Positions 3,455 to 37,903 of a stretch of 64,000 bases of DNA are shown here, piece after piece (positions within the stretch are counted from its first letter, which is position 1; every line of letters starts with the position of its first letter). Under the pieces are notes generated by a model. That model ran no database searches. It saw nothing but the letters and a program-made list of their open reading frames with translations, and was not told where the DNA came from. A program made the translations under genes and the position numbers. This DNA comes from Verrucomicrobiota bacterium. GTDB lineage: Bacteria; Verrucomicrobiota; Kiritimatiellia; UBA8416; JABMPJ01. The stretch spans positions 20,067-84,066 of the forward strand of contig JABGQM010000013.1 in assembly GCA_018648805.1 (NCBI GenBank), written 5' to 3'.

Positions 3455-3526
3455 GGCCTCGCGCTCGGCGAGCGCGGGCTACATCAGACCCCTTCTCTGT
3501 AGCCCGCTCTCGCCGAGAGCGAGGCC
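3455..3526. repeat. REP-like palindromic element copy 1 (intergenic, GH4 / PDZ-protein)
   Basis: ggcctcgcgctcggcgagcgcgggctac - 17 nt - gtagcccgctctcgccgagagcgaggcc. The arms are near-perfect reverse complements. Confidence 0.85.
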
Positions 3527-3620: not shown

Positions 3621-6600
3621 CTACCGCTTCAGCACGAACCAGGGGCTGTTCCAGGTGCGGGGATGCTTGTAGTGCTGGCGCTCGTGGTAGAAGGTGAAGC
3701 CGCCGGTTTCGATGAAGAGATACGCCTCGCCATCGATCGTCCTGGTCTTCATCTTCAGGGCTCCCGCCTCCCGGCCCGAAATCTGCATCAGCGTGTCACC
3801 GGACCAGTACCGCTCAGAGCTATCGGTAAAGCCATTCTCCTTCAACGTGATGCTGCGGTAGCGCGGCAGCGCGGGGTCGACCTCCGCGCCCGGCTTGAAG
3901 TCGTCGATCTTCGCTACCTTCCCGATCGGCTTCCAGCTGCCGAGCACACTCTCGTTGGCAACGAACGTGCCATCGAAGCGGAAGAGTCCCTCCTCTGTGC
4001 TGAGCTCGCCCTCATCGGAATCCTGATCCTGCTGCCACTCGCTCGACTGCAGGGAAATGAACTTCAGCCCATCCCACGCCAGCTCATCACTGACCGGCGG
4101 ATTCTTCATCTCCTCCAGCCAAACATTGAGAAAGCCATGAATATTCCCGGTTCGATGATGCTTGTTCAAATGGCAGATGGCAGAGAGCGTCACGTCCTGC
4201 CCCTGGAAGGATGCCATCATGCTCTTGGAGATCAACGCCCCTCGTGCGCGGCCGCCTTGCCCTCGTCTCGGAGCAGCTCTGCCACTGGCTATCTGCTTGC
4301 CGTTTATAGAGACTGTCGGGCCATTTCCAAGACCAACGTGCGAACGCCCCCCAAAGAGGATCCGATAGCTATACCCCTCCCTCATCGGCGGGAACGTGAA
4401 TGTCCCGCGGATCATGAGGACCTCCTTCTCCCAGAGCGTATTGACCTGATCTCCACATCGGCAGACTGGATTATTGCAGCCGATGAACCTGTTAGCGTCT
4501 CCCTCGCCTTGCGCCCGGCCATCAACCTGTCCGAATGGTGCAAGCCCCTTCTTCCAGCCAGCCGACACTGGATCGAACTCCGACGAATTCCACCTATCCA
4601 TGCCCTTGGGCATCGTCATCTTGCGTGAGCGATTACCGCGCGGCACCCACTCCAGCTTCTCGGGTGGATCGAAACTGTAGTAATGCCACTTCATTGCACT
4701 TCGATCCGGCCCAAAGTTCTGCCACTCGTAATCGGTAACACCCGCCTTGCGGTAGAGCGACGAGAGATCGGTCAGACGACAGTGGGCACTGCCCCCCTTG
4801 GTCAACTCACTGCGGAGCGTGCCGAGATTACGAGAAACAAACTCAGGCACCAACTGCTCAAGCACGATCGGTTTGAGTGCCGCCTTCACATCGGGTGAAA
4901 AGCTGGCGTAGTCGGCCCAGAGATACTTCTGCTTATAGGGAAGGATCTCTTCCGGGTGCCGGGCCTTGGCCACCTGATAGAGGGCGCTGAAACCACCCGG
5001 TGCGCTCACGAGTTGGTAGGCAATAGTCCTAAGCGAAACAGGGACGACATACTTCTTCATGTCCCCCTTCAGCTGATCCGCAGCGGCATCACCGGCGGGC
5101 GGCTGCAAATCGGCAGGGAAATCAGTGTAGGACTTGCTGAGCATGACAACCGCAGCTGCCTGCACCTTGGGGCTGGCGGTCGCGAGGCGCTTGGTGAGGC
5201 CACCGATCGGACCGGTCGCAGGACAGTTGACGTTGTTGACCACCATGTCACCAATCTTCGGCAGGATTCTGGCGTAGGTGGCATCATCCACCGCCAGGGG
5301 TGCGAGGGCCTGCAGCGCCGCATGCTGCAGCCACCACTCCTCATGACCAAGGAAGTAGAGCAGGCGATCCAAGTGCGGTGCCGTCTTCTCCTTGGGAAGC
5401 ACACTCATCACCCGCAGCGCATTTTCCACGCACCACCATGACGCTTCGGGATCATTGACCATGGCGATCACCAGGCCCACCATCTCGTCGGTCAGCCTCT
5501 CGGCCGGCAACACATGCGTGCCCTTATGTACCGAGTGAATCACCGAGAGCGCGGCCCGTCGTACCCGGGCGTCCTTGTGTTTGAGCATGGCGACGATCTT
5601 CTCATCCTGCTCATTACGCTTCACATAGCCCGCCCCAACCTCTCGGCGCATCTCATGGTCCGGGTGTAGGCAGTACTGCAGCCCAAGTGCTTTCGTATCC
5701 TCTGTGGCCCGGAAGAGCCGTTCAACACCATTGATAGGACCACCCTCGATACTGTCGTCGAATGCTGGAATCCTGCCGTCGGCGTCGACCGCCGGCGTGA
5801 TCTCGCAGAAATCATCATCCGCCGCCGTACCCCAGGGGCGCTCCGGAAGGGCGTAAGGCTTGGACCACTTGCCGCGCGGCGCGCCCGACAAGCGCAGCGT
5901 CTTGCGGGGGATCGTGTACTGCAGCGCCATCATCTGCCCCCAGGTGGAAGGGGTGTCGTAGCGGCTGGTACCATTGAGGATGCCAAAGGAACCATTGAAA
6001 CGACGGCTCATCTCGAGATGCCAGAGGCGGCCATCCATGAAGGCGCGGTATTTGGCGGGTTCTTTCTCGTAGAGGAAGCCCATCGCAGGGCCACGCCACA
6101 CCTCACCAATGCCGCCGCCGGTGTGTCCGGTGAGCATGTAGTTGGTGCCGTAGAAGCCGCGCAGGGCGCTGACATCCCGCGCCCTGGCATAGACCGACTG
6201 CTCACCTCTGGGGGTGAGTGCCGCGGCCGCCGCCATGGTAAAGGCCAGCGCACCGGTCTTGCCGTTGTCGATGAAGTAGGTCTCGGGAAAGCCGTCGCCA
6301 TAGGGCACGCTGCCCTTGCCGGCAAAGCGATAGAACTGCCTGAGCGACTCCAGCATGATGGACTCGTTCACCTCGACGCCGCACTCCTTGGCCAGCATCA
6401 GAAAGGTAGGCCCGTGAATACCGGCCGCATTCATGTGTCCGCCAACCATGTAACCAAAGACCAAGCCGCCCCGACCGCTCCAGGCGCCGTTGAACATCGT
6501 CCCCTCCACGTGCCTGACCAGTTTCTGGATTACAGGGAGAATGCTCTTGTCGCCCGTGCGTAGGTAATACTCGGCCAGGGGAATGGCGGCCGAGCCGAAG

Positions 6601-7280
6601 ACCCACGGTTTGAGGAGGATCTTCTCTTCATGCTTGTACTGTTCGACCACCCGCTTGATCCAGCCACGCACATGTTCCAGATCGCTCTCGTCGCCAGTGG
6701 AGAGAAGGAACAGCATGCCGAACCCATTCAGGGACTTCCATCCCTGCGTATCGAGATCGTAGCCACCCTCGGTCTTCACCCAGTGGGCCATGTTGCGGAC
6801 GATCTTGTCCGACTTCTTGCAGTTGAGCGGCCATGTCTTGCTGTAGGCGCCGAGTACAGGTAGCTGCACAACCACCTCTTCCGCCTCCTCGGCCGCTTTG
6901 ATCATCAGCTTGATCTTACCGTCCGTCGCCTCGGCCGCCGCAATGATCCTGGCCAACTGGATGCGCGGATCAATGTCCTTGAGCACCTGACCGTTGATCG
7001 ACTCGATCCTTTGGCCGGTCACGAGCTTGCCGGTCGCTTCTGCAGGGGAGCCTTCCTCGATCTTACCCACGTACATCTGATACGGCGGCAGGCGCAATTC
7101 GAGGCTCATTCCCACGGGACCAAAGCGGTCGATGCTTTGGCTGGCCGACGTCTCATTCGGATGCCAGAAATTGAACAGGTTGGGCTGCTTATAGAAGGAC
7201 TCCGCCATCGCATGGCTGCCCACCCCGACCCACAACGCTGCCATCATCCCTATCATCCGCATCATCAGTTGCCGCTTCAT
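3621..7280 (-). CDS. Large secreted PDZ-domain protein with alpha/alpha-toroid-like central region, HEAT-like repeats and Cys-rich C-terminal region (paralog 1 of 3)
   Basis: ORF 3621..7310; the probable start is the internal Met MKRQLMMRMIGMMAALWVGVGSHAMA (signal peptide). PDZ-like block GKIEEGSPAEATGKLVTGQRIESINGQVL. Blocks shared with 12695..15121 and 49813..51573: AYSKTWPLNCKKSDKIV, EYYLRTGDKS, TGHTGGGIGEVWR, SFGI, TPRKTLRLSGAPR. Confidence 0.6.
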   Translation of the reverse strand: MKRQLMMRMIGMMAALWVGVGSHAMAESFYKQPNLFNFWHPNETSASQSIDRFGPVGMSLELRLPPYQMYVGKIEEGSPAEATGKLVTGQRIESINGQVLKDIDPRIQLARIIAAAEATDGKIKLMIKAAEEAEEVVVQLPVLGAYSKTWPLNCKKSDKIVRNMAHWVKTEGGYDLDTQGWKSLNGFGMLFLLSTGDESDLEHVRGWIKRVVEQYKHEEKILLKPWVFGSAAIPLAEYYLRTGDKSILPVIQKLVRHVEGTMFNGAWSGRGGLVFGYMVGGHMNAAGIHGPTFLMLAKECGVEVNESIMLESLRQFYRFAGKGSVPYGDGFPETYFIDNGKTGALAFTMAAAAALTPRGEQSVYARARDVSALRGFYGTNYMLTGHTGGGIGEVWRGPAMGFLYEKEPAKYRAFMDGRLWHLEMSRRFNGSFGILNGTSRYDTPSTWGQMMALQYTIPRKTLRLSGAPRGKWSKPYALPERPWGTAADDDFCEITPAVDADGRIPAFDDSIEGGPINGVERLFRATEDTKALGLQYCLHPDHEMRREVGAGYVKRNEQDEKIVAMLKHKDARVRRAALSVIHSVHKGTHVLPAERLTDEMVGLVIAMVNDPEASWWCVENALRVMSVLPKEKTAPHLDRLLYFLGHEEWWLQHAALQALAPLAVDDATYARILPKIGDMVVNNVNCPATGPIGGLTKRLATASPKVQAAAVVMLSKSYTDFPADLQPPAGDAAADQLKGDMKKYVVPVSLRTIAYQLVSAPGGFSALYQVAKARHPEEILPYKQKYLWADYASFSPDVKAALKPIVLEQLVPEFVSRNLGTLRSELTKGGSAHCRLTDLSSLYRKAGVTDYEWQNFGPDRSAMKWHYYSFDPPEKLEWVPRGNRSRKMTMPKGMDRWNSSEFDPVSAGWKKGLAPFGQVDGRAQGEGDANRFIGCNNPVCRCGDQVNTLWEKEVLMIRGTFTFPPMREGYSYRILFGGRSHVGLGNGPTVSINGKQIASGRAAPRRGQGGRARGALISKSMMASFQGQDVTLSAICHLNKHHRTGNIHGFLNVWLEEMKNPPVSDELAWDGLKFISLQSSEWQQDQDSDEGELSTEEGLFRFDGTFVANESVLGSWKPIGKVAKIDDFKPGAEVDPALPRYRSITLKENGFTDSSERYWSGDTLMQISGREAGALKMKTRTIDGEAYLFIETGGFTFYHERQHYKHPRTWNSPWFVLKR

Positions 7281-12694: not shown

Positions 12695-15121
12695 TTACTT
12701 GGCCTTCTTTTGCGCTTCCAGCTGCTTGTGTTCCTCCATCGCAGCTTTGGCCGCCGGGCTGAGTTTAGCGGGGTCCTGCTTCATGTAGATTCGACTGTGA
12801 GGCAGCACGGCATCAGGGAACCGCTTCCGTGCAGGGGCGAATAGCTTGTTTAGCCCGTCCGGGAACTGGGCTGCATTCTGAAGAATGGTGTTCAGCATCG
12901 TTTCCTCCGCGCGCCACATACTGATCTTGTCCGGGCCGTGGATTTCGGCCGCCCGCGGGAAGTCTGTGTAGGACGTGGCCAGTACGTCCAGAGCGAGCTT
13001 CCGCACCTCTGGCGTCGCGCTCTTCAGGCCACCGAAGATCTTTCCAACGGGAGACGAGCGAGGGACGTTGGTGTTCCTGGCCATGATCTTGCCCACGGCG
13101 GGCAGGATTCTGCGGCAAAATCGCTCGTCGCCGGCCACCTTGGCCAGGGGCAGCATTGCGGCCGCCGAAAGCCACCACTCTTCGTGGTCCAGCCAGTAGA
13201 GCAACCGATCCACCTGCGGTGCGATCTGTTCCGCGCTCAGCAGGCTCAACCCTCTAAGCGCGTCGTGCACGACCCACAGAGATTCATCCGCATCGTTGAT
13301 GATGGAATAGAGCTGTTTGACCATGTCGTCCGTGATCCGATTGGCCGGCATGGGGCGTCGCTTGAAGGTACAGTAGATCGCCATCGTTCCCGTGTGCCGC
13401 ACACGAGGGTCCTTGGATGTGAGCAGCTTGACGACCAGATGATCACGCTTGTGCTTCCAGATGAAGCTTGCCGCACCCCGCCGCATCCCGTGATCCGCGT
13501 GATGTGCATATTTGAGCAGGACGTCGTCGCTCACGTCCGGGGCGCTCATGATCCCCCAGACAGGCTGAGACGCGTCCGTTACGAACACTTCGCGGTCAAC
13601 ATCCTGCACGGTGCCGCCATCCTGCATAGCCGGCACATTCGAGCAGAAGGCATCGTCGGCGGCATTCCCCCAAGCACGTTCCGGCAGTTTGTATGGCTTC
13701 AGAAACTTGCTCCGCGGTGCGCCGGTCAACTGCAGCGTCTTGCGCGGCGCCGTGTACGACATGCCCATCGTGATGCCCCATGATTCGGGTTTATCGTATC
13801 GCCCCCCACCGCCCACGATACCAAAGGAGCCGTCGTGGCGTCTGGAAAGCTCATAGAACCACTGCCGCTTGTCCATGAACTCGCGGTGCTTCTTCGGCTT
13901 CTTGTCCTGCATCAGGCCCATGGAATAGCTCCGCCAGATTTCGCCCACGCCACCACCGGTATGCCCGATCAGCATCCACGACGTGGAGTAGAATCCTTTG
14001 ACTGCCGAGTTGTCGCGTGCCCGGGCGTAGATCGAGTTCTCGCCATCGGGTGTCAGCCGGGCGGCCGCAGCCATGGTGAATGCAAGACCGCCGGTCTTGC
14101 CGTTGTCGACGAAGCTCTGCTCAGGGATGCCATCGCCATACGGCACGTTGCCCCGGCAGGCAAAGCGGAAGAAATGCTTAAACGACTTCTGCAATGTGGC
14201 TTCATCGACCTCAGCACCGCAGGCCTGGGCCATCAGCAGAAACGTCACCACGTGTACGCCACAGGCATTGATATGTCCGCCGCCCATGTAGGGGAATGCC
14301 ATATGCGCATCCGGGCCGCGTCGGCCCTGGTACGTACCGTGTGCCCAGCCGTCGTTATACATGTCCCACCGGGCGTGGTCTGCGATCATGCTGATGAGGG
14401 GCAGCACCGATTTGTCACCGGTGCGCAGGTAGTACTCGCACAGCGGAACGCCCGCATAGCCAACGGTCCAGTTCTGGATCGGGGCCACGTCGGCCGGCGT
14501 CTTGTACGTCTCGACCAGTTTTCCGGCCCAGCGGCGAGCGACCGCGAGATCCTTCTCCTCGCCTGTTGAAAGCATGAACAGCATGGCCGGGCCCGTAAGA
14601 TGGCTCAGCGGGAAGTCTTCGCGCGTTCTGAGATAGTCGGCCAGATCAGTGACGATCTTGTCGGACTTCTTGCAGTTCAGCGGCCAGGTCTTGCTGTAGG
14701 CACCGATCGCCGGAATCTTCACCGCGACCTCCCGGGCATCAGCGTCTGCCTTATCGCGAATGATGAACTTCAGCACGCCGTCCTTCGCTTCAGCCTTCGT
14801 GATCATGTTGCCGAGCTGAATGCGGGGGTCGATATCCTGCAGCTTCTCGCCGTTGATCGTGTCGATGATCTGCCCCGTCTTCAGGCCACTCTTCTCGGCA
14901 GGTGATCCGGGCTCCACGCTCTTAATCTTCATGCCGAACGCCGGCAGCGTCAGCTCAATGCTCAGTCCTGCCGGGCCAAACCGGTTGACGAGCTGCCCCC
15001 CTCGCGTCTCACTGGGACGGAACGCAAAGTAAATGGCGTCCGGTGCATAGTATGCGGCCTCCACGGCTGCGGCCGTGATAAGCACCATGATGATCGCAAC
15101 AATCCACTTCGTCTGTTTCAT
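12695..15121 (-). CDS. Secreted PDZ-domain / alpha-alpha-toroid-like protein (paralog 2 of 3)
   Basis: Start at MKQTKWIVAIIMVLITAAAVEA, preceded by an AGGAGA RBS. PDZ-like block KIKSVEPGSPAEKSGLKTGQIIDTINGEKL. Blocks shared with 3621..7280: AYSKTWPLNCKKSDKIV, EYYLRTGDKS, GHTGGGVGEIWR, TAPRKTLQLTGAPR. Confidence 0.6.
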   Translation of the reverse strand: MKQTKWIVAIIMVLITAAAVEAAYYAPDAIYFAFRPSETRGGQLVNRFGPAGLSIELTLPAFGMKIKSVEPGSPAEKSGLKTGQIIDTINGEKLQDIDPRIQLGNMITKAEAKDGVLKFIIRDKADADAREVAVKIPAIGAYSKTWPLNCKKSDKIVTDLADYLRTREDFPLSHLTGPAMLFMLSTGEEKDLAVARRWAGKLVETYKTPADVAPIQNWTVGYAGVPLCEYYLRTGDKSVLPLISMIADHARWDMYNDGWAHGTYQGRRGPDAHMAFPYMGGGHINACGVHVVTFLLMAQACGAEVDEATLQKSFKHFFRFACRGNVPYGDGIPEQSFVDNGKTGGLAFTMAAAARLTPDGENSIYARARDNSAVKGFYSTSWMLIGHTGGGVGEIWRSYSMGLMQDKKPKKHREFMDKRQWFYELSRRHDGSFGIVGGGGRYDKPESWGITMGMSYTAPRKTLQLTGAPRSKFLKPYKLPERAWGNAADDAFCSNVPAMQDGGTVQDVDREVFVTDASQPVWGIMSAPDVSDDVLLKYAHHADHGMRRGAASFIWKHKRDHLVVKLLTSKDPRVRHTGTMAIYCTFKRRPMPANRITDDMVKQLYSIINDADESLWVVHDALRGLSLLSAEQIAPQVDRLLYWLDHEEWWLSAAAMLPLAKVAGDERFCRRILPAVGKIMARNTNVPRSSPVGKIFGGLKSATPEVRKLALDVLATSYTDFPRAAEIHGPDKISMWRAEETMLNTILQNAAQFPDGLNKLFAPARKRFPDAVLPHSRIYMKQDPAKLSPAAKAAMEEHKQLEAQKKAK

Positions 15122-15289
15122 ATCGGATACGTCTCCTGTTTCGCCATTCTGTTCCTGGTGCCCGGCACCGTTCAAACTATTTCTCGTTCGCAAGCCGCGG
15201 CCATCACCGCGCCCCCACCTTCAGCATGCACAATATTCAGAAGTAAGTATACTCGATCAACACGCAGGCAATACACATCACTACCTTTT

Positions 15290-16369
15290 TCATTCTGGCG
15301 TCCCCATCGTTGCTGCATGATTCTCTGCCAGTAGTCGCGCCAGCATTCCGCCGGGGGTGACGTGGGGCGTGAAGAGAGAACTGCCCTGGTCGATCACAAA
15401 GCGGTTCCTCTGCTCTGCGGCCGCGAGATCGCCATCGCGGTTGCGCATCTCCAGCACGAGCATCCGATTCTCCTGAAGGGCCTCAGCGAATCCGGGCGCG
15501 TAGCCCGCGCGCTCAAGATCCCAAGCCGGGCAGGCGATTACGCGCTTCTTGTGCTTCAGGAGCCAGGCGAGAATCTCTTTCTCCTTCGGGGAATGCCAGC
15601 CACCCAGGTAAACATCCGCTTCAGGCAGATTGCCGATGTGCGGGGCGTTGCGGCTGCAGAGTACGCCAAGGGTTTCCGCATTCCAAAGGGCGGGATTCCC
15701 AATGCCGCGCAACCCATTGCCAAAAGTCTGCACGCATTTCCACGGGTTCATGCGGATGTATTGGGCAATCTTCTTCTCGGCCTCGGCAGAGCGCACAATC
15801 ATTTCATAATAATTGCGGTGCCAGATTTTCTTTTTGAACGGCGGAAATCTTCCGGCCTTCACGCCCTGAATATAGGCGTGCGTGGAGCGCGATTTGAAAG
15901 CGCAGATGAAATCGCCCAGCCCTTTTTCGCCCTTTTGAATTCGGATCAGCGCATGAAAATGATCAGGCATAATGCAATAAGCTAAGAGCGAGGGCGAAGG
16001 CGCAGAAGGGGCAGAATGCGGGGAAAGAGGGGGAAGAGGGGAAAGAGGGGGAAGAGGGGCAGACACAAGGCCTGCCCGTACGGGCGCGCCTTGTGTGCGC
16101 CCCTCCCCAGAGCGCTCCTCCCCAGAGCGCTCCTCCCCTGAGCGCCCCTCCCCAGAGCGCCCCCTTCCTGCGCCTTGGGCCTCTAGAGCAATTTCTTCCC
16201 AGATGAGAATCAGGATTTCTTTCGCCCCCTCAGCCGCAAAAATATCGCCCGCCTCCCGATGCGCGCAGAGGGTGATGAAATAGGTTCCTCCGCCGGCATA
16301 ATCATGCCCTTTGAGCCGAATGCTTCGGCGGTGATGCTTTTGGGGATCATAGGTCATTGAGGCGGCCAA
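15290..16369 (-). CDS. REP-associated tyrosine transposase (RAYT, IS200-like HuH Y1) with an internal low-complexity insertion and a C-terminal DprA/SLOG-like Rossmann domain
   Basis: HDYAGGGTYFITLC (beta1), YCIMPDHFHALI (HuH) and WHRNYYEMIVRS (catalytic Tyr) match the RAYT/IS200 pattern. The C-terminal ~140 aa (GVLCSRNAP...VIACPAWDLE...EQRNRFVIDQGSSLFTPHVTPGGMLARLLAEN) resemble DprA motifs (IVGSRNAS; RRNRII..SG.LITAR). A continuous 359-aa ORF. Confidence 0.65.
   Translation of the reverse strand: MAASMTYDPQKHHRRSIRLKGHDYAGGGTYFITLCAHREAGDIFAAEGAKEILILIWEEIALEAQGAGRGRSGEGRSGEERSGEERSGEGRTQGAPVRAGLVSAPLPPLSPLPPLSPHSAPSAPSPSLLAYCIMPDHFHALIRIQKGEKGLGDFICAFKSRSTHAYIQGVKAGRFPPFKKKIWHRNYYEMIVRSAEAEKKIAQYIRMNPWKCVQTFGNGLRGIGNPALWNAETLGVLCSRNAPHIGNLPEADVYLGGWHSPKEKEILAWLLKHKKRVIACPAWDLERAGYAPGFAEALQENRMLVLEMRNRDGDLAAAEQRNRFVIDQGSSLFTPHVTPGGMLARLLAENHAATMGTPE
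15985..16175. repeat. Repeat-rich in-frame insertion inside the RAYT gene: GA-rich tandem repeats, a 34-bp near-palindrome, and CT-rich tandem repeats
   Basis: 16019-16060 (gaggggaaagaggggga)x2; 16063-16096 acacaaggcctgcccgtacgggcgcgccttgtgt (contains the perfect 12-bp palindrome gcccgtacgggc); 16101-16170 (ctccccagagcgctc)x4. It encodes GRGRSGEGRSGEERSGEERSGEGR...LPPLSPLPPLSPHSAPSAPS between the beta1 strand and the HuH motif. Confidence 0.8.
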
Positions 16370-17274
16370 TCCAGCGTGTAGCTGTGCCCTGGCTCCTTGT
16401 TATGCTGCTTCAGAAGCGGCGAATAGGCCGCAACACGGATCTTCCCGGCAACCGGGTCGAAACGCATGGTCTGCAGCCAGCCGTTCCCGCCATTGGGAGC
16501 CCCCTGGTAGTCGCAGAGAATCTCAAGAACGTCGCCACCGCTGTCGTTGACAGAGACTCCGTGGGCAACCGCGGGCACATGGCCGCCGACCACGATCCGG
16601 ATATTGGGGCTCATGCGCACAAGTTCATCCCAGATCAGGCGGCCGCGCGGGCCCTTCTTGTCGCCCCTCAGGAGATAGGCGTGGGTGGCCAGAATGATCG
16701 TCTCTTTCGGATGATCGGCGGCAGTCTTCCGCGCCCAGGCCAGCTCCGACTCCGTCGGGTCGTAGGTCAGAGAGAGGACCATCCATTGCCGTCCACCCGC
16801 GGAAAAGCGGCAGGTGTTGACCCCGTTATTGGTGGGGCTGACCGATCCCCCGTACCACGGCTGCGCGGCAAAGCGGGCGGGGCCGAAATACGTGTTGTAG
16901 AGGGTCAGCTTTCCGGGGGCCCCGTCATGGTTGCCGGGCAGCACGCTGTAGGGCACATGACCGTCGAGCACCTTGTGGGCCCGATCGGCGGCCTCCCATT
17001 CGGACTTGTTCTGCGGGGTCTGAACAATATCGCCGAGGTGTATCACAAAGGTCGTATTCAGTTCCGCGGCCGTCTCCTTGATCCAGCGGGTCTGCGCCAC
17101 GTAGGTCTCAGGGAACTTCTGACTGTAGAACTGCGTATCCGGGAGCAGAACGATGGTGAATGGATTGTCAATCCGTGGGGTGCTGCGCGGCACCGTCGCG
17201 CAACTGGTCAGCAGCAGCGCCACAACCAGCATCAGGACATTACCAACCACTAGTCTCACCCTCTTCATAACCAT
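16354..17274 (-). CDS. Calcineurin-like metallophosphoesterase lipoprotein
   Basis: HLGDIVQ and LPGNHD phosphoesterase motifs. N-terminal lipoprotein signal MVMKRVRLVVGNVLMLVVALLLTSC. Its ATG overlaps the stop of the upstream gene (TGATG). Confidence 0.7.
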   Translation of the reverse strand: MVMKRVRLVVGNVLMLVVALLLTSCATVPRSTPRIDNPFTIVLLPDTQFYSQKFPETYVAQTRWIKETAAELNTTFVIHLGDIVQTPQNKSEWEAADRAHKVLDGHVPYSVLPGNHDGAPGKLTLYNTYFGPARFAAQPWYGGSVSPTNNGVNTCRFSAGGRQWMVLSLTYDPTESELAWARKTAADHPKETIILATHAYLLRGDKKGPRGRLIWDELVRMSPNIRIVVGGHVPAVAHGVSVNDSGGDVLEILCDYQGAPNGGNGWLQTMRFDPVAGKIRVAAYSPLLKQHNKEPGHSYTLDWPPQ

Positions 17275-20153
17275 CACCTCTCCTCGTGTGCCAAACGCCA
17301 TGCATTCAACTGCTCATGAAACTGCTTGTAGATACTCAAGTGCTCCTCGCGTGCGGGCTGCTGGGAGCGCCGCCGCGTTTGCGCCGCCTCATCCTTGCGA
17401 CCCAGCGCCTCCAGAATGATCGCCTTGATCGCCCATAGCTCGGTCAGAATGTCATCCGGCTCCTTCACGGTCACCGTTGCCGCGTCCTTGCGCCAATGCT
17501 CGATCCCCTTACTCCGCCGGCCCCGATAGTAGCGCAATTTACGCGCATCAATCGCCTTATCGATGCACTCCAGCGCCCCGTCCCAATCCTTGAGTGCCAT
17601 CTGGGCCAGCGCGCCACCATGATGCCGCGGGGCACGCCACCCGTAACGCTCCGGTAGAAATGGAAGGAAGGGACCCGCAAAGGTGCGTGCCGCCAGCGTG
17701 TAGTCGCCCGCCGTCAACGCACGGTACGCCAGCTGGATATCACTGATCTCGATGTGGACCTTCATGGCCAGCGTAACGGCAAAGGGGAAACCGAACTCCG
17801 ACTTGTAGACGAGCCCTGAGCAATGCCAGGCAACGGTTCCGTCGCGGCGCAACAGGAAGACATTGGGCAGGCGATCGGCCGACAGAATCCCCAACTGCTG
17901 CACCATCGGATTATCCAACCCACCGGGAACCATGGCGGCAGCGCAGCTCCATTCGTTCGTCTTCATCAGCCGCTCGACCCGCTGCGCATCGTCGGTCAAA
18001 AAGGCCAGGCGTACATCGACCTCTTTGTTCACATGCTGATCGGCCAAGCTCAATGCACTGCTCACCACGCCCCTGACGTAATCACGCAATTGAAAAACAT
18101 ATTTGGGCACGAAGCCCTTCTTGCCCTGCACCACCGCGAAATCTGCTTCAGACTCGGGGGGCGGCTCGATAAAGAGCAGCAGCGTCAGACGGCCCTCTGT
18201 GTCATCCGGCAGGGAGAGAGCGCTGCCATCGAGATTCTTGAGTTCACACTTCGGGAAGGGCACCGCGTTGGTATTCCATCCGTGATTGACGATATGAGCA
18301 CGGCTCCATCCCATGCGGTCGCCACGCGTGCTGTTGGGCTTCAGCAGGTAGAAACGGTGGTAGCGGTTGAGGAGAAATGAGCGCACGCCCCACATGGGAT
18401 GTGCGCTGTCGGCCAGCAATGCCAGCGTCCGGGTGCGGTACTCCTCATGCAGCTCCCGGCTATTGGCTTCCAGCGCCAGAATCGCTGCGGCGGCCAGTGC
18501 CGATGCCGGTGCCGCATCGCCCCCCGATGCCTCGACCAGCTGTCGGATTTCTCGTTCGGCATGGGGACCTTCTTCGCGAAAAGAAGCCTTGGCCAGACAG
18601 AAGCGCGCCACCACGCCCTCGGCCGGCGATACCTTTGCCGCCAACACGGTGTTCGCCTCCTGCACCGCCTGCTCCAAATGCGCGGGGTCACAAGCCAGAT
18701 TCCACATTCCCAGCAGGGCAATGATTCGCCGGTTGCGTACCAGCCACAGTTCCGGCGCGTTGGCGTGTTGCTTGATGGCCTCACCGCACAGCTTCTCAGC
18801 CCTCTGGTAGTTCGCCATCGCCTCTTCGCGCGTCAGTCTGTAACGGAACGGTGGCGGAGTGAAGCACGCTTGGATAGCGCGGAGTATCTCATTGGGCTCC
18901 GCTCCTGCTGGCCTCGCGCTCGGCGAGCGCGGGCTACTTTGGAGCCCGCTTCCCTGTAGCCCGCTCTCGCCGAGAGCGAGGCTCTCTGAGGGCGCATTCG
19001 GTGCCACCGGATCGGCCACCAGGAAATCCCCAATAAACAACGACTGCAGCTGAGCCAAGTAGCGGTCGTGCGACAGGCGTGCCTCGCTGATCTTGAAAAT
19101 TCCGCCGTCAAGACTCATCACCCCCACGTTCGAATCCGGGTTGACCCCGAACGGATTCAGCACCGTGTAGCCGAAGGCGTTGACGAACAGGGCGTTGGGG
19201 TTGGCACCGCCATAGGCTTGATAGGCCACATTCCGTTCACCCTCCGGCAAATGCATGGCGTGCCAGTCCAGTCCCATCTTGCGCAGCACCTTTTCGCCGG
19301 CATCAGGTAGCTCATCGAGATTGAAGCTGTAGACTTCAAAGGCCCCCGGGAAGAGCTCCTGCTGCTCTTTAACCTGCTGCATGAAGCGCTCAATACCAGA
19401 GCTCTCCTGCGACCAGTAGACCAGCAGGCACTGATGCCCGATGCGGTCACCCGGAATGTAGAGGGTGGTGCCATCGGAACGCTGATAGCTCCCTTTGCAT
19501 TTCACGGCCAGCGACTTCAGACTCAGCACGTTACGGCGAAATGCGATGACTTCAGGATTGCCTGCGCAGCGCTCGTCCATGGATCGCTCTATGAAGTAAT
19601 CCAACTCGCCTGAGTCAAGGTCCTTCGCGATCGTCGCCCCGATCATCAGGCTCTTGGGCTCCGCCGACGTGCCGCGGTAGCGTATGATCAATGCTTCCAG
19701 AGCCTCTGCCCGCTCCTCAAGCGAGGCGTCACTATTGGACTGATCCCGCTCCGACAGCAGCAGGTCGGCTTCGAGCCTGACGCCTGCCCATTCATCCGGC
19801 GCCTGCATCAACTGAGTGCAAATATCATACAGGACCTCCCGGTTACGGTCGGTTCTCTCCAGCGTCAGCACCACCTTCTGGTTCTGGAGCATCATGCCTA
19901 ACAGCTGAAACCGTTTGGGGTCGTCGGGGTGGCTTTCAAGAAGCTTGTCTCCCCCACGGACCACACGCTTGCAGGCCCGTCGCTGCTCGGCAGAACCCGG
20001 CTTGCCTGCTCTGGCCTTCTGACTCGCCGCTTGCAGGGCGGCCATCTCAGCAGCGGGAACGGGAGCGGCACCGAACGCAGCAGGCAGCAGCGCCAGCAGC
20101 AGCGCCAGCAGACAGGCGCCCCGTATCAAAACATCCATGGCCCGAGTCAGCAT
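17274..20153 (-). CDS. Secreted protein A: N-terminal helical region plus two TlpA/thioredoxin-like domains lacking CxxC (paralog of 22350..25346); carries an in-frame REP element
   Basis: Signal peptide MLTRAMDVLIRGACLLALLLALLPAAFGAAPVPA. TlpA-like fold pattern ELKNLDGSALSLPDDTEGRLTLLLFIEPPPE...LPNVFLLRRDGTVAWHCSG, with IEPPPE in place of WCxxC. 959 aa. Confidence 0.55.
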   Translation of the reverse strand: MLTRAMDVLIRGACLLALLLALLPAAFGAAPVPAAEMAALQAASQKARAGKPGSAEQRRACKRVVRGGDKLLESHPDDPKRFQLLGMMLQNQKVVLTLERTDRNREVLYDICTQLMQAPDEWAGVRLEADLLLSERDQSNSDASLEERAEALEALIIRYRGTSAEPKSLMIGATIAKDLDSGELDYFIERSMDERCAGNPEVIAFRRNVLSLKSLAVKCKGSYQRSDGTTLYIPGDRIGHQCLLVYWSQESSGIERFMQQVKEQQELFPGAFEVYSFNLDELPDAGEKVLRKMGLDWHAMHLPEGERNVAYQAYGGANPNALFVNAFGYTVLNPFGVNPDSNVGVMSLDGGIFKISEARLSHDRYLAQLQSLFIGDFLVADPVAPNAPSESLALGESGLQGSGLQSSPRSPSARPAGAEPNEILRAIQACFTPPPFRYRLTREEAMANYQRAEKLCGEAIKQHANAPELWLVRNRRIIALLGMWNLACDPAHLEQAVQEANTVLAAKVSPAEGVVARFCLAKASFREEGPHAEREIRQLVEASGGDAAPASALAAAAILALEANSRELHEEYRTRTLALLADSAHPMWGVRSFLLNRYHRFYLLKPNSTRGDRMGWSRAHIVNHGWNTNAVPFPKCELKNLDGSALSLPDDTEGRLTLLLFIEPPPESEADFAVVQGKKGFVPKYVFQLRDYVRGVVSSALSLADQHVNKEVDVRLAFLTDDAQRVERLMKTNEWSCAAAMVPGGLDNPMVQQLGILSADRLPNVFLLRRDGTVAWHCSGLVYKSEFGFPFAVTLAMKVHIEISDIQLAYRALTAGDYTLAARTFAGPFLPFLPERYGWRAPRHHGGALAQMALKDWDGALECIDKAIDARKLRYYRGRRSKGIEHWRKDAATVTVKEPDDILTELWAIKAIILEALGRKDEAAQTRRRSQQPAREEHLSIYKQFHEQLNAWRLAHEER
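18910..18982. repeat. REP-like element copy inside the protein A coding frame
   Basis: ggcctcgcgctcggcgagcgcgggctac...gtagcccgctctcgccgagagcgaggc is translated in-frame as ESLALGESGLQGSGLQSSPRSPSARP. Confidence 0.85.
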
Positions 20154-22203: not shown

Positions 22204-22322
22204 GTAGCCCGCTCCCCGCGGAGCGGGGTAAACTCGCCGCTTGCCCCGCCTTGACGGGGAGAGCGAGGCCGATGTGCCGATGTCTACGCGTGGCCTCGCG
22301 CTTGGCAAGCGCGGGCTACGTA
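22204..22322. repeat. Composite REP-like element (long-variant arm with nested palindrome plus a second arm) in the B-C spacer, abutting the C start codon
   Basis: gtagcccgctccccgcggagcggggtaaactcgccgcttgccccgccttgacggggagagcgaggcc, a 22-nt spacer, then gcctcgcgcttggcaagcgcgggctac. The long arm matches the 46233..46342 variant. Confidence 0.8.
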
Positions 22323-22349: not shown

Positions 22350-25346
22350 TTATCTGATCTCCTTTGCAACGATACTCATTCTCTCTTCAAAAACTTCATA
22401 GGGTTCATTGAACCCGCGTATGCGACTGTAGTGGGTCGGATAATGGGTGGGCTTTACAGCGGCCTTGTTGCGAGCGGTTCTCGCTTCGGAACTACGACCC
22501 AGACCATCAAGCGCCTTGGATCGTGTGGTCTGCAGATGCAACATCGTGGTGCACGGATCTTCAGGATCGTGGTTGAACTGCCCTTTCCTGAGATGCCAGG
22601 CGATCGCGCTATCGACATCTTCCAAGGCAGCTTCATACTCCTTCAGGCCCAGATGGGCCAGGGCCCTACCATGGTAGCGCGAGGCCTTCCATTTGCTGGA
22701 GACCTCGTGTTGCGGCAGAATCGGTGTGTCCGCTTCGACCTTCTCGAGATAGGTGCCGGAGAAGAGCTGGACGGCCTTCTCGTACGCCTTTGCCTTCAAG
22801 GCTCGATATCCCGCTTCCGTGTCGACCCCATGGACCTGGGCCTCCCACGCGAGGGCACTGATGTGGGCAAACTTGCCAGACATCTGATAGGGCAGACCAT
22901 TCTTCTTCCAGGCAATGGTGCCATCCCGCCGGACAAGGAAGGAGTTGACATTCCGGTCGGCCGACAGAATCCCCAGCTGATTCACCACCGGGTTGCTCAG
23001 CCCCCCCGGGAGAATCGTGACCAGCCCCGGAAGGCCATACTTGTCGCGAATGGCCTTCACCATAGCGACATCATCGCTCAGGAAAACGGTCACGCACTGA
23101 AGACCGTTGTTATGCCTTCTGGCAAACCCGTAGGCACTGCCGAGAATACCGCCGGGCTGCGGGTTTTTGTTCTTCTTGGTCGCTTCGCCGGGCGGGGCGT
23201 AGATCGCGCGGGCCAGTTCATTGCTGCCATCGGAAGACGGTTCAACGAACAGCAACAGAGTCAACCGCTCACGCTTCGTGTCGGGGAGCGACACCGTCTT
23301 GCCATCCAGGTTCTTCAAATGAATCTCTGGAAGCGGCAGCGTCACCGGGGTGAGACCCACATCAATCATGTGGCGGCGTTCCGTGAATCGGTACTCGCGG
23401 GAGTAGAGATAGAAAATCGGGTTGCCGCGAAAGAGGTAGTACTGGTGGTAGCGGTCGCGCAGGAAGGCAACGAACGGGGCGATATCCTGCGACTGCGCGT
23501 CCGACACCAGAATCATGTCGCGGCACTGATGGTAAAGCTCCCGTGAGTCGGCATGGATAGCGAGGATGACCGCCGCGGCGTGTGTCTTCAGGCCCGCCTT
23601 CTCTCCGCCGCAATCCGCAACAAACCCCTCTACGATCACTTTCGCGCTGGCGTCCCCTTGGCGCAGCGCCGCTTTGGCCAGACAGAAGCGGGCGACCACC
23701 CCTGCCCCATCAGGGAGATCCAAACCAACCGTCGTGCGCGCCTCCTTGACGGCGTCCGGGAAATGCGTGGGCGATCCGCTGATGTTGGCCATCCCCATCA
23801 GTGCAATGATGCGATAGTTGCGCACCCGCCACAGATCCGACGCTTTGGGAGTGGCCGCAATCGCCTTGACGCAGAGGTCGTTCGCCTTCTTGTATTGGGC
23901 CAGTGCTTCGGCCTTGGTTAGGCGGTAGCGCTGTGGGATGGGCAGGAAGCAGGCGCGGATCGCCTTGAGCGTGTCAGCAGGCACGGCTACTGCCGGCCTC
24001 GCGCTCGGCGAGCGCGGGCTACTTTGGAGCCCGCCTCCCTGTAGCCCGCTCTCGCCGAGAGCGAGGCTCTCTGAGGGTGAATCAGCCACGAGCAGATCGC
24101 CGATCAGCAGCGACTGGATCTGGCTCAAGTGCCGGTCGTATTCGCCATAGCTGGCAACGTGACCGGTGGGCACCAGTCGCGGATAGGCAAACTCGTCATA
24201 CACGCTGGAGTGGGCGAATTCCTTGGCCTCTTCTGCGTTCTTGAAGTGGATCGCCATGCTGGGCGGCACAATGGCGTGGCCGAAGTGGTTGACCCGCAGC
24301 GCCGCGGGCATATGCAGCGCATAGGTGCGGAAGGTCTCGCTCTGCACACCGCCCGCCAACCGTAGCACGGTGCACGCTAGCCCAACCGACTTGATAATGG
24401 ACGCCCCAGCATCGGGCAGCTCGTCGACATTGAAGCTGTAGAGCTCCAACAGCCCCGGCGCCTCATCCTGCTGCTGCTTGAGCTGCTTGAGTTTCGCCAG
24501 CGAGGCCTCCGAATCCTTCGACCAGAAGACCGCATAGTAGGCGTGTCCCAGACGGTCATAGGGAAAAGTCATGGTACTGCCATCGAGGCGCTCGAACCTA
24601 CCGGAAAAGACAATATCCATCCGGGTGGCGCCGATCAGCGTACGCCGATAGTTGATGGCAGTCGGGTTTTCGGCGAACCGTTCGCTCAGGTCTGTGACCA
24701 GCTGTTCCTTGAAATCATAGTCACCCAGCTGGGTTGCGAGGCGCACGGCCGCCATCAGAAACTCAAGTTCGCCCGCTGTATCGCGGTAGCGCAGCCGCAT
24801 CTCTGACAGCGCCTTGATGCGCTCCGCCGCATCGGCGTCGCGCGCCGAAAGATCCCGCTCGGAGAGCATCAGCTCGGCATTGAGCCGATAGCTGCTGTAT
24901 GCATCGGGGGCCTCTCTCAACGCCTTGCAGGTCGCAAAGAAGGCCTCCCGGTTGCGTTCGGTGTTCTCCATCTGAAGCAGGCGCTGCTGCGCCTTCAGTT
25001 GGAGCGCGAGCACAGGAAACCGATTGGCCGCATCCGGCTGGGCCCGCACCAGAGCCTGCGCATCGCGGATCACGCCCTTGCACATGCGGCGCTTGGTGGA
25101 GGACGAGGCGCGGGAGGTCGCAAGGGCGGCGAGCTCGGCCTGGAGTGGGTCGAGGGACGCTTCGGGGATGAGCGCGGGCGATTGTGCCGCTGCCGGCAGC
25201 ACAGCAAGCATTAGCGAGAAGCCCAGGAGGAGAGAGCCGAGAGCTCTCGATAGAGCGTTGATTGCTGTCGATTGCTGCCGACTGCTGCCGACAGCTGTCG
25301 ATTCTAGACTCTCCCCATTCGGAAATCGACAATCGGAAATCGGCAT
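22350..25346 (-). CDS. Secreted protein B: paralog of protein A (double Cys-less TlpA-like domains), with an in-frame REP element and a 10-bp tandem repeat in its 5' coding end
   Basis: Collinear similarity to A, for example RLTLLLFVEPSSDG and NVNSFLVRRDGTIAWKKNGL. The same REP-encoded block ESLALGESGLQGGGLQSSPRSPSARP sits at the same relative position. The ATG is coupled 5 nt after the upstream gene stop with an AGGTAGAGAA RBS. Confidence 0.55.
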   Translation of the reverse strand: MPISDCRFPNGESLESTAVGSSRQQSTAINALSRALGSLLLGFSLMLAVLPAAAQSPALIPEASLDPLQAELAALATSRASSSTKRRMCKGVIRDAQALVRAQPDAANRFPVLALQLKAQQRLLQMENTERNREAFFATCKALREAPDAYSSYRLNAELMLSERDLSARDADAAERIKALSEMRLRYRDTAGELEFLMAAVRLATQLGDYDFKEQLVTDLSERFAENPTAINYRRTLIGATRMDIVFSGRFERLDGSTMTFPYDRLGHAYYAVFWSKDSEASLAKLKQLKQQQDEAPGLLELYSFNVDELPDAGASIIKSVGLACTVLRLAGGVQSETFRTYALHMPAALRVNHFGHAIVPPSMAIHFKNAEEAKEFAHSSVYDEFAYPRLVPTGHVASYGEYDRHLSQIQSLLIGDLLVADSPSESLALGESGLQGGGLQSSPRSPSARPAVAVPADTLKAIRACFLPIPQRYRLTKAEALAQYKKANDLCVKAIAATPKASDLWRVRNYRIIALMGMANISGSPTHFPDAVKEARTTVGLDLPDGAGVVARFCLAKAALRQGDASAKVIVEGFVADCGGEKAGLKTHAAAVILAIHADSRELYHQCRDMILVSDAQSQDIAPFVAFLRDRYHQYYLFRGNPIFYLYSREYRFTERRHMIDVGLTPVTLPLPEIHLKNLDGKTVSLPDTKRERLTLLLFVEPSSDGSNELARAIYAPPGEATKKNKNPQPGGILGSAYGFARRHNNGLQCVTVFLSDDVAMVKAIRDKYGLPGLVTILPGGLSNPVVNQLGILSADRNVNSFLVRRDGTIAWKKNGLPYQMSGKFAHISALAWEAQVHGVDTEAGYRALKAKAYEKAVQLFSGTYLEKVEADTPILPQHEVSSKWKASRYHGRALAHLGLKEYEAALEDVDSAIAWHLRKGQFNHDPEDPCTTMLHLQTTRSKALDGLGRSSEARTARNKAAVKPTHYPTHYSRIRGFNEPYEVFEERMSIVAKEIR
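23995..24067. repeat. REP-like element copy inside the protein B coding frame
   Basis: ggcctcgcgctcggcgagcgcgggctactttggagcccgcctccctgtagcccgctctcgccgagagcgaggc. Confidence 0.85.
25258..25303. repeat. Imperfect 10-bp tandem repeat (GATTGCTGYC x4) within codons 14-29 of protein B, followed by 2x CGGAAATCG
   Basis: gattgctgtc gattgctgcc gactgctgcc gacagctgtc. The unit length is not a multiple of 3. The same unit recurs at 39111..39142. Confidence 0.7.
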
Positions 25347-25350
25347 TTCT

Positions 25351-26460
25351 CTACCTCTGATAGATGGGAATATACCGATGTGGCGTGCTCAAGATAATGA
25401 TCGCCATCGGCGTGCCGTATTTTTCTTTCTTATGCCAGGAACCGTCGGCGCCTTGCTTGGCAATGAGGGCGTCCCGGATCTGCGGATACCACGCATCATA
25501 CTCTTTGTCGCCTGCCTGAACCATGGCTTGCAGCGCGTAGTAGTGACAATAAAAATAGTGGCCGGCATTGTTGAAGATGTTTTCCTGCTTTTTCAAAAGG
25601 CGAAGCGCCCCGTTGATCACCTCGGTGTCGCGCATCCCGGCCAACTGGCCAGCGTAGGCGATCCCCGCCGTACAGGGAATTGAGGTGCCGCCATTACCGT
25701 TGGGGGCATAGGAGAAGCCGCCGGTCGAACCATCGCGCGCCCCTTTGACGTACTTGCGGAATTTCTCAATGACCTCATTCTCTACCATGACGCCCGCCTG
25801 GCGAGCCGAGGCCAGGGCAATGAAGACCATCGCCGTCACCGATGAGTCCTCGCCCCCATCCGCCTTGGGCTGGTAACGCCAGCCGCCGCCGGGGTTCTGC
25901 GAGCGCTTGATCACTTCGACCGCCTTCTCGACCGCCTTCTGCACGGCGTCATCGTCGTCGCGGTCCTTGGTCATGCCCCAGATCTCGGAAAGCGCCAGTG
26001 TAGCCAAGCCATGTTCGTACATGGTGCTGCCCAGGTAGCCGTCCTTACGGGACTTAGCGTACTTCATCATGAACGCCTTGGCCTTGTCCATTTCCGCGCT
26101 GTACTTGCCGAAACCAGGGAAATGGGCATTGGCCATAAAGGCCATCATCGCCAGCGGGGTAATCGCCATCACGCGGCCACCCTCGCCATTGCTATCCCAG
26201 GAGCCGTCAGCTTTCTGGGTCTGGAGCAGATACTTCAGTCCCCGGTCGATCGCCGCCGAGGCCTCTTCGGTCAACTCAGGCGCGCCATCTGTGGTGGAAG
26301 CCTCGACCGCCGTCCTCCTGATGATGGCGTCGAGCTTGTCGGCAGCGATCGCGGGCTGCAGCGAAGCGCACAGGATACCGGCCAGTAGTAGCCACCGGAC
26401 GCCACCGACCTTTCGCGACCACTCGCCACTCGCCACTCGCCACTCGCCACGTCTCATCAT
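25351..26460 (-). CDS. Prenyltransferase / squalene-hopene-cyclase repeat (alpha-alpha toroid) secreted protein
   Basis: Repeated QxxxGxW blocks: QKADGSWDSNG, QNPGGGWRYQ, AKQGADGSWH. Signal-like VRWLLLAGILCASLQPAIAA. ATGA overlap with the upstream gene stop. Confidence 0.65.
   Translation of the reverse strand: MMRRGEWRVASGEWSRKVGGVRWLLLAGILCASLQPAIAADKLDAIIRRTAVEASTTDGAPELTEEASAAIDRGLKYLLQTQKADGSWDSNGEGGRVMAITPLAMMAFMANAHFPGFGKYSAEMDKAKAFMMKYAKSRKDGYLGSTMYEHGLATLALSEIWGMTKDRDDDDAVQKAVEKAVEVIKRSQNPGGGWRYQPKADGGEDSSVTAMVFIALASARQAGVMVENEVIEKFRKYVKGARDGSTGGFSYAPNGNGGTSIPCTAGIAYAGQLAGMRDTEVINGALRLLKKQENIFNNAGHYFYCHYYALQAMVQAGDKEYDAWYPQIRDALIAKQGADGSWHKKEKYGTPMAIIILSTPHRYIPIYQR
26421..26448. repeat. 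Perfect 7-bp tandem repeat (ACTCGCC x4) in the first codons of the prenyltransferase-repeat gene
   Basis: actcgcc actcgcc actcgcc actcgcc, translated as GEWRVASGEW. The unit length is not a multiple of 3. Confidence 0.8.
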
Positions 26461-37772: not shown

Positions 37773-37903
37773 AATACTCTCTCCCTTTATGATGCTTCCG
37801 GGTTTCCCGGGTGTTCTTCTGTTCGCCTTCATGCTTACCTGTTCCCAACTGAATCGGTTCTTGTCTGCTTGTGGAGGAAGGTCTGTCGGTTAAGTGTATC
37901 CGA

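Follow-up and report, generated by a model that had tools for sequence, protein, structure and literature searches.

Why would a transposase of a domesticated type be joined to a domain related to DprA, and why would its gene carry hairpins that resemble the substrates of such transposases? REP-associated tyrosine transposases (RAYTs), named for the repetitive extragenic palindromic (REP) elements, are widespread domesticated transposases, for which a cellular role and the way of moving REPs and REPINs (inverted REP doublets) are still being sought. All RAYTs described are, to our knowledge, single-domain proteins. The 64,000 nt of a Verrucomicrobiota genome analysed here (contig JABGQM010000013.1, positions 20,067 to 84,066; the window) contain an open reading frame (ORF) on the reverse strand at 15290..16369, stop codon included, which encodes 359 amino acids (aa) from a TTG at 16369. 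An earlier inspection of the letters, made without database searches (the sequence-only reading), saw in it a RAYT-type HUH transposase fused to a C-terminal DprA/SLOG-like domain. Here we report that this ORF, RAYT-DprA, is intact and encodes a two-domain protein whose large family is confined to the Planctomycetes-Verrucomicrobia-Chlamydiae (PVC) bacteria. The identities of both domains are well supported, and from them and from the hairpins within the gene we infer a mechanism.

An intact gene for a two-domain protein

All of the peptides quoted in the sequence-only reading are present in the translation: HDYAGGGTYFITLC at aa 22-35, YCIMPDHFHALI, which includes the HUH motif at aa 137-139, WHRNYYEMIVRS at aa 183-194 and, in the C-terminal half, GVLCSRNAP, ACPAW, NRMLVLEM and AAEQRNRFV. 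No stop codon separates the domains and both halves are continuous. Is the fusion peculiar to this contig? The sequence-only reading had pointed to other PVC genomes as the place to look for it, and it is there: at least 548 loci of the GTDB species-representative genomes have it uninterrupted by a stop, often as divergent paralogues. In a collection of 5.8 billion clusters, 685+ proteins have the continuous two-domain ORF, at about 290-370 aa. The fusion is therefore neither a chance reading frame nor a product of assembly. Where these 685+ proteins are named at all, they are called 'transposase', 'putative transposase', 'REP element-mobilizing transposase RayT' or 'hypothetical protein', and their domain annotation is PF01797 alone, or none. 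The sequences of the fusion are already in the databases, with the second domain unannotated.

The true start codon is likely the ATG at 16355-16357, which would give a protein of 355 aa. This start is favoured because the homologues begin M-x-YDP and because the ATG overlaps the TGA stop codon of the upstream gene in an ATGA (16354..16357). The upstream gene (16354-17301) encodes a Metallophos (calcineurin-like phosphoesterase) protein, and the overlap is consistent with translation of RAYT-DprA being coupled to it. The full 359-aa sequence is absent from a public collection of 15 billion proteins. The public gene call for the exact window sequence is instead a 226-aa protein that starts at M134 (P0002), downstream of an insert encoded by REP-like DNA. 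Such low-complexity inserts probably lead to systematic truncation of RAYT-DprA genes in annotation, in which gene callers shorten the protein at one end while its C-terminal domain is invisible to Pfam.

The N-terminal RAYT domain

That the N-terminal half is a HUH tyrosine transposase of the RAYT type was supported by family models and by the predicted structure. Pfam Y1_Tnp matches aa 128-206 (E 3.7e-8). The NCBIfam model REP_Tyr_transpos (NF047646) scores 67.3 bits (E 1.3e-18), 47 bits ahead of the IS200 model (20.4 bits, E 4.6e-4). This is below the cutoff of 80 bits because the insert splits the domain and only the part that follows it is matched (model positions 49-133). In a Foldseek search of the PDB with the full-length AlphaFold2 model, which has a predicted local distance difference test score (pLDDT) of 82.9, the top match was 4er8_A, the Escherichia coli TnpAREP in complex with a REP hairpin (E 1e-5; template modelling score, on the target, 0.59). 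The next matches were the TnpA proteins of ISDra2 and IS608.

The domain begins with a segment of aa 5-64 (16178..16357; the reverse strand applies to all features of the gene unless stated otherwise) that is conserved in all homologues and is modelled as strand beta1 (GGGTYFITLC) followed by helix alpha1. The metal-binding HUH motif, H137-F-H139 (15953..15961), is invariant in 118 sequences and aligns to MPDHVH of ISDra2 TnpA. Downstream of it is the block WHRNYYEMIVRS (15788..15823). Its WHRNYY portion is the RAYT signature and not the nucleophile. The catalytic tyrosine is most likely Y204 (codon 15758-15760) of the invariant YIRMNPW (15740..15760), at the junction with the second domain; in a profile alignment the catalytic segment of ISDra2 TnpA, IQKY132IE, falls on this invariant residue. 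As judged from these alignments, the HUH and tyrosine set of the first domain (aa ~5-211) is intact.

The C-terminal DprA-type domain

The second domain, a trimmed, minimal DprA-type domain of aa 212-352 (15314..15736), was modelled with a pLDDT of 90.2. It has the DprA-type Rossmann fold, and its best structural match is ShosA. The sequence-only reading had assigned it to DprA/SLOG from motifs seen by eye. Searched directly, the C-terminus has no DprA/SLOG match in Pfam or NCBIfam at E <= 1, and a profile of the C-terminal family found no DprA among PDB sequences, its single match being a chance one to proline dipeptidase (E 0.06). The sequence-only reading had named a failure of profile searches as something that would refute the assignment, and formally they did fail; the assignment nevertheless stood on fold, intermediate sequences and motifs. 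A phmmer search with this domain alone, against 1.84 billion representatives, returned 295 proteins. Most of those at a distance (E about 1e-5 to 1e-12) are proteins of about 150-250 aa without a Y1 domain; 61 of the 89 distant hits that were scanned match PF02481 DNA_processg_A (best E 2.2e-15), and three that were checked individually are above its gathering score. When the domain of the fusion family was aligned with the PF02481-positive proteins by hhalign, the probability was 99.7% (E 1.2e-26, 137 columns). The absence of a direct match to a DprA hidden Markov model (HMM) is due to divergence and not to a different fold. By its fold, alignments and motifs, the second domain is well supported as a divergent DprA-clade member of the SLOG domains.

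DprA's base-binding pocket for single-stranded DNA (ssDNA) is formed by two motifs, G-S/T/A-R and F/L/Y-x-x-R-N/D, the latter with a variant A-M-x-R-N/D (Wang et al., PMC3950713). Both have counterparts here. The first is C238-S239-R240 (15650..15658), in which the Ser and Arg are invariant across the RAYT-DprA family and an equally invariant Cys takes the place of the Gly. The second is A318-E319-Q-R321-N322 (15404..15418), of which A, E, R and N are invariant in the family and whose nearest published form is the A-M-x-R-N/D variant. Between them is a loop and helix, GGWHSPKEKE (15575..15604), with invariant G257, H259, S260 and E263. The GG(W/F)HSPxE of this region replaces the canonical SGxAxGID of DprA; stand-alone relatives of the PsyrA-like kind also have GGFHSPxE. 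Compared with stand-alone relatives, the second domain is missing the helix after the first Rossmann strand. The domain would probably bind ssDNA. The Rossmann domain of ShosA binds ssDNA experimentally (PMC11961720). The sequence-only reading had suggested an accessory ssDNA-binding module, a role that the domain may have.

Stand-alone relatives of the second domain match the PADLOC model for PsyrA (E down to 2e-18), and one matches ShosA. The full window protein matched neither in PADLOC, the only hit being a noise-level 'Specificity_I' (E 0.006). Such matches to PsyrA suggest that these relatives could belong to uncharacterised two-gene defence or toxin-antitoxin (TA) modules. One stand-alone relative, P0160 (172 aa), overlaps a 1134-aa gene for a phospholipase D (PLD) nuclease with SNF2/helicase (L203 318-4224). 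Another, P0176 (L202 2279-3190), has a PhdYeFM antitoxin gene about 180 nt downstream.

REP-like units within the coding sequence

The insert that splits the first domain, in its alpha1-beta2 surface loop, comprises 66 in-frame aa of low complexity (aa 65-130, 15980..16177) for which disorder is predicted (pLDDT 41-63). This region is hypervariable in length and sequence across the homologue alignment. At the DNA level it is encoded by a long imperfect, REPIN-like palindrome of ~200 nt (15985..16190), with a predicted ssDNA fold of -63 kcal/mol (z = -4.0), outer arms at 15990-16011 and 16162-16183 and, at its centre, a perfect core, CACAAGGCCTGCCCGTACGGGCGCGCCTTGTG. Two opposed units of 25 nt that share one palindromic GTAC head make up this core. 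The sense unit is GTAC-GGGCAGGCCTTGTGTCTGCCC (16057..16081), whose stem includes one G.T pair, and the antisense unit, on the forward strand, is GTAC-GGGCGCGCCTTGTGTGCGCCC (16078..16102). Each has a GC-rich stem of 8 bp and a loop of 5 nt, which is the anatomy of REP elements. One palindrome arm contains a 9-nt tandem repeat (GGGGGAAGA x4.4; 16020..16059) and the other a 15-nt tandem repeat (GCGCCCCTCCCCAGA x4.5; 16097..16163) that encodes (G/E)RSGE repeats. Rfam returned just sub-threshold look-alikes of miRNA precursors for 14900-16700, reflecting the hairpin, and a promoter and terminator scan was uninformative.

Are such units a property of the family? Units defined as GTA[G/C]-GGG[C/T]-stem-loop-stem were counted in 82 sources, the window and 81 homologue loci. 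There are 153 inside RAYT-DprA genes, in 72 of the 82 sources, and 13 in 1.116 Mb of flanking sequence. The density is therefore 1.94 per kb in the genes versus 0.0116 per kb in the flanks, a difference of about 167-fold, and 6 of the 13 flank units are themselves within 130 nt of a RAYT-DprA gene. Peptides that appear as inserts in the homologues (VGAGLVSA, GTHEGCPY, GATRMSPV, RRGEACLAP and others) are translations of these units in either orientation. The sites recur. Typically the Met of MPDHFH is preceded, at 31 or 98 nt, by an antisense unit and followed, at 36 or 100 nt, by a sense unit, and the heads of the two point inward and bracket the HUH codons. Additional sites are present in loops of the DprA-like domain. 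Examples of embedded units are at L006 10169-10292, L079 10227-10448 and L038 174-686. Two reading frames are used for each orientation of the unit which, together with the several loop sites, argues for several independent insertions that were filtered for an open frame.

The embedded units have 27 distinct 8-nt stems, and between loci both sides of the stem have changed. Stem positions that are not Watson-Crick, read on the strand that carries the head, are G.T in 47 cases versus A.C in 6, for sense and antisense units alike. This asymmetry follows the head strand, and the folded form is therefore ssDNA of either strand, as for RAYT substrates. A role of the hairpins in mRNA structure was considered and is ruled out by the same bias, which tracks the head strand in both orientations. 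Pairs of units within one gene share a stem in 31% of cases versus 10.6% between genes, a value reached in 0 of 2000 permutations. The heads are also asymmetric, with sense units having GTAG in 63 and GTAC in 12 cases and antisense units GTAC in 70 and GTAG in 8. Codon constraints fail to account for this. The idea that the hairpins are private to RAYT-DprA genes was likewise ruled out, since in a metagenome scan with one variant 153 of 165 units were outside such genes. The embedded hairpins belong to an ordinary REP type, and what sets them apart is their strong concentration in the RAYT-DprA gene.

Di Nocera et al. (2013, PMC3733652) had already documented in-frame intragenic REPs with GTAG heads, which are most abundant in Opitutus terrae, a verrucomicrobium. 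What appears to be new is that the RAYT gene itself is a REP hot spot.

The abundant REP family of the window

The window also has an abundant REP family of its own, the GTAG-headed GTAGCCCGCnnnCGCCGnnnGCGAGGC family (GTAGCCCGC...), with 15 copies in 64 kb where 0 were expected. Ten of the 15 copies form five inverted doublets (REPINs), and the two sides of the stem co-vary (GCT/AGC, TCT/AGA, TTT/AAA, TCG/CGA). The sites are 3456-3525, 18911-18982, 22293-22319, 23996-24067, 40230-40300, 44592-44662, 46316-46342, 47427-47453, 47912-47938 and 49734-49760. The sequence-only reading had suggested a link of RAYT-DprA to this family, which is not supported: the GTAGCCCGC REPs do not flank the gene and are found in 0 of the 81 homologue loci. 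The family has no match in any of the 203 loci that were fetched, the homologue loci included, and these REPs were dropped as candidates for a conserved partner of RAYT-DprA. There is no second RAYT within the window.

Some of these REPs are inside long ORFs: 18911-18982 in the ORF at 17274-20153, 23996-24067 in that at 22350-25388, and the copies at 47427, 47912 and 49734 in 46596-49859. One of these genes encodes a 959-aa protein that reads ...LALGESGLQGSGLQ... across the REP doublet. The frames are free of stops and the genes apparently real, so these appear to be in-frame intragenic REPs as in O. terrae. The ORFs 17274-20153 and 22350-25388 are tandem paralogues, recognised as repeat families 5085 nt apart with 72-81% identity, and have a REPIN at the equal relative position. 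The frame 46596-49859, which holds three REP units, also contains a 36-nt tandem repeat (x2.6, 80% matches) at 47585-47679.

Distribution and genomic context

From the GTDB scan, 80 of the at least 548 loci were fetched. Almost all are from Kiritimatiellia/Pontiellaceae, Lentisphaeria/Victivallales and other Verrucomicrobiota. The window has one RAYT-DprA copy, as does each homologue locus. In several genomes there are two or three paralogues that have diverged and that embed REPs of different types; copies from the same genome share only about 44-65% identity with the query. No relative was found in 2.9 million viral contigs (IMG/VR). In the window no TnpB partner was seen, and an inverted-repeat scan found no subterminal hairpins flanking the gene. 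RAYT-DprA behaves as a domesticated host gene and not as an insertion sequence (IS).

The neighbours in the window are the upstream Metallophos gene and genes for a DUF6288/PDZ protein and a thioredoxin-like protein. Conserved synteny with Metallophos or DUF6288 was rejected, as neither recurs beside the homologues. The DUF6288/PDZ gene adjoining RAYT-DprA is involved in a second paralogous pair in the window, 6175-6899 and 14013-14752, about 7.8 kb apart.

What does recur beside the homologues is type I restriction-modification (R-M). Genes for HsdS, HsdM or HsdR are within 4 kb in 25 of 81 loci (31%), and in 10 (24%) of the 42 loci whose sequence extends 3 kb or more to either side. Their defining domains have Pfam E values of 1e-41 to 1e-69. 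The Hsd genes are co-oriented with the RAYT-DprA gene (X) and mostly less than 100 nt away, in the operon orders S-X-M, M-X-S-R and S-X-R (L002, L003, L018, L020, L028, L030, L032, L033, L042, L056, L065, L075 and others). Across the family tree this association is scattered, with the nearest neighbour also being R-M associated in 10 of 21 cases versus a background of 33%. Four of the five closest relatives of the window protein are R-M associated, and the window copy itself is not. Other cargo in the same operons includes RhuM, Schlafen AlbA_2/Fic-like proteins, the YhcG PD-(D/E)XK nuclease, NYN, Bro-N, a 23S-rRNA-IVP four-helix bundle and HD.

A proposed mechanism and the alternatives

What might such a protein do? 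The account that we consider fairly probable is that RAYT-DprA is a domesticated, hairpin-directed ssDNA enzyme with a DprA-type clamp for the single strand. The Y1 domain would recognise the tetranucleotide head and hairpin in ssDNA, at replication forks or in transcription bubbles, as E. coli TnpAREP does, and would cleave and rejoin the strand through a 5'-phosphotyrosyl intermediate. This is the established chemistry of the IS200/IS605 and TnpAREP enzymes, and it is the intact HUH and tyrosine site and the RAYT fold that argue for it here. The DprA-type domain, which follows directly after the tyrosine helix, would hold the single strand that flanks the hairpin and might also dimerise the enzyme or hand the strand to RecA. 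In canonical DprA the Rossmann domain mediates dimerisation; among the transposases, TnpAREP is monomeric and the TnpA of IS200/IS605 an obligate dimer. The second domain would in this way supply in cis what canonical single-domain RAYTs lack. A preference of the enzyme for acting in cis, near where it is made, would explain the repeated in-frame landing of GTAG/GTAC-GGGC-type units in loops of its own gene that tolerate them. Such a preference fits how strongly the units are concentrated in the gene, the DNA-strand signature that they carry and their similarity within genes.

Several observations besides the unsuccessful direct profile searches weigh against this account. The Cys in the first motif, the deleted helix and the altered loop make ssDNA binding by the second domain plausible but not assured. 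Intragenic GTAG REPs are general in PVC bacteria (PMC3733652) and are present in other ORFs of the window; embedding alone is therefore no proof of a cognate relation. No REP flanks the RAYT-DprA gene in the window, the nearest being 2.5 kb away at 18911-18982, and the abundant GTAGCCCGCnnnCGCCGnnnGCGAGGC REPs differ in type from the embedded units, whose GGGC type has no other copy in the 64 kb. The whole account is drawn from sequences and models, and the ssDNA activity is a predicted one. Finally, the stand-alone proteins nearest to the second domain resemble the defence antitoxins PsyrA and ShosA, which suits a role in defence as well.

Such a role is the most serious alternative, possible if somewhat unlikely. 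RAYT-DprA would here be a cargo module of type I R-M systems or defence islands, and REP mobilisation would not be its main role. Its DprA-like domain would act as a sensor or binding module for ssDNA or a nucleotide, or as a modulator of restriction and methylation, and its HUH domain would be an effector nuclease against invading or damaged ssDNA. The co-oriented hsdS, hsdM or hsdR genes at 25 of 81 loci speak for this, as do the spread of the R-M link across the family instead of a single clade, its presence in four of the five closest relatives and the typical cargo that these operons share (RhuM, Schlafen AlbA_2, YhcG nuclease, NYN, Bro-N). So do the PsyrA and ShosA matches among the stand-alone relatives, one of which overlaps the PLD and SNF2-helicase gene, and ShosA as best structural match. 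There is also a precedent in the DprA of Helicobacter pylori, which alleviates restriction (PMC3597690). However, the window copy and about 70% of the loci are not beside R-M genes, the window protein has no PADLOC match to PsyrA or ShosA, and its gene has neither a phosphoribosyltransferase (PRTase) nor a RecQ-type toxin partner as a neighbour. RAYT activity on REPs is moreover the more natural explanation of why REP units are so strongly enriched in the gene. REP mobilisation and a role in R-M or defence are not mutually exclusive. A still bolder combination of the two, which we regard as doubtful, is a self-contained RAYT-REP unit of a new type. The coding sequence itself would be the main reservoir and landing pad of the substrate hairpins, and the inward heads at the HUH codons would allow self-regulating excision, copying or gene conversion. 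The DprA-type domain would couple cleavage to RecA-dependent or templated strand exchange, and as cargo of R-M operons the protein would alleviate restriction or attack foreign ssDNA. If true, this would link REP/RAYT biology to genome defence.

Could the gene instead be decayed or mis-read, or the element simply be mobile? Both are unlikely because the frame and motifs are conserved and there are no identical copies. If the insert had disrupted the RAYT domain, the product would be the 226 aa from M134, or the ORF would be a pseudogene open by chance; public gene calls give just this 226-aa form, and the insert is of low complexity and disordered. Yet the 60 residues before the insert keep the frame and show strong conservation (invariant Y24, G27, G28, Y30, F31, T33, C35 and H37), and they supply strand beta1 of the Y1 fold. 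Inserts of differing length and sequence at that loop stay in frame in 118 of 118 aligned homologues, and all catalytic and DprA-motif residues are intact, which leaves a decayed or mis-read gene very improbable. Least probable of all is an active, selfish IS of the IS200/IS605 type whose transposase has an extra domain. Membership of the Y1_Tnp family would suit it, as would the several copies in some genomes (for example, three in Pontiellaceae B1224) and the variable position of the gene within R-M operons. But copies in the same genome, at about 44-65% identity to the query and with different REP types, are divergent and therefore paralogues instead of products of recent transposition. The single copy in the window, the lack there of TnpB and flanking subterminal hairpins, the 47-bit lead of the NCBIfam RAYT model over IS200 and the absence from viral contigs are also against it.

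Comparison with known systems

Among the closest known systems are E. coli TnpAREP (4er8) and the RAYTs in general. RAYT-DprA shares with them the HUH/Y1 fold, the HUH and Tyr motifs, a signature block of the WxRxYxxxxxR type, an association with GTAG-headed hairpins, a low copy number and divergent paralogues. In contrast to the single domain of TnpAREP (the 4er8 chain is 165 aa), RAYT-DprA adds a DprA-type domain of ~140 aa after the tyrosine helix, and its REP-like units are inside the coding sequence instead of flanking the gene. The IS200/IS605 TnpA proteins (IS608, ISDra2) share the catalytic fold and chemistry and the hairpin-directed recognition of ssDNA. Unlike them, RAYT-DprA has an extra domain, scores better on RAYT models and is without multiple identical copies, TnpB or left-end and right-end hairpins beside the gene.

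From DprA/Smf (PF02481; H. pylori 4ljk, Streptococcus pneumoniae 3uqz, Rhodopseudomonas palustris 3maj) the window domain differs in having no direct HMM match, in lacking both accessory domains (SAM and winged-helix) as well as the first helix, and in its Cys for Gly in motif 1 and GG(W/F)HSPxE for SGxAxGID. It is also joined to a nuclease, and nothing was seen that links it to competence genes. ShosA and PsyrA are DprA-like antitoxins of the Shosta and PsyrTA anti-phage systems. Unlike these, the window protein matches neither model, its gene has no adjacent PRTase or RecQ toxin, and the domain is fused to a Y1 nuclease. The intragenic GTAG REPs of PVC bacteria (PMC3733652) resemble the embedded units in being in-frame single units or dimers that add 8-30+ residues to loops of functional proteins. 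There, however, RAYT genes are described as flanked by REPs or terminal inverted repeats and the intragenic REPs are scattered over unrelated genes, whereas the RAYT-DprA gene is a hot spot; we saw no mention in that paper of REPs inside RAYT genes.

Has the fusion been described before? The sequence-only reading took the architecture to be undescribed, and full-text literature searches across 8 million papers for RAYT with DprA, a C-terminal domain of RAYTs, SLOG or DprA with a transposase, and DprA with IS200 found no description of it. The word 'domain' is absent from the main comparative RAYT study. A RAYT welded to a DprA-type domain, which is RecA-mediator-like, gives a concrete, testable hypothesis of what becomes of the single strand after cleavage. 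Ordinary RAYTs moreover lack two handles that this family provides. One is the presence of substrate-like hairpins within the gene itself, in variants that differ between loci and with a strand signature that points to DNA rather than RNA; the other is the recurrent physical link to type I R-M operons. Together, a two-domain RAYT, R-M cargo and self-embedded REPs make a good experimental entry into RAYT function.

Other repeats in the window

Two further repeat clusters were seen away from the gene. An AT-rich patch at 1867-1971, in a window that is otherwise GC-rich, contains a 29-nt inverted repeat (1867-1895 / 1930-1958) and a 13-nt tandem repeat (TACTTAATCTATC x3.8). At 37903-38036 a 12-nt tandem repeat (AGTTCACGACAA x4.7) adjoins a 20-nt inverted repeat (37941-37960 / 37991-38010), an arrangement with an iteron-like or operator-like look.

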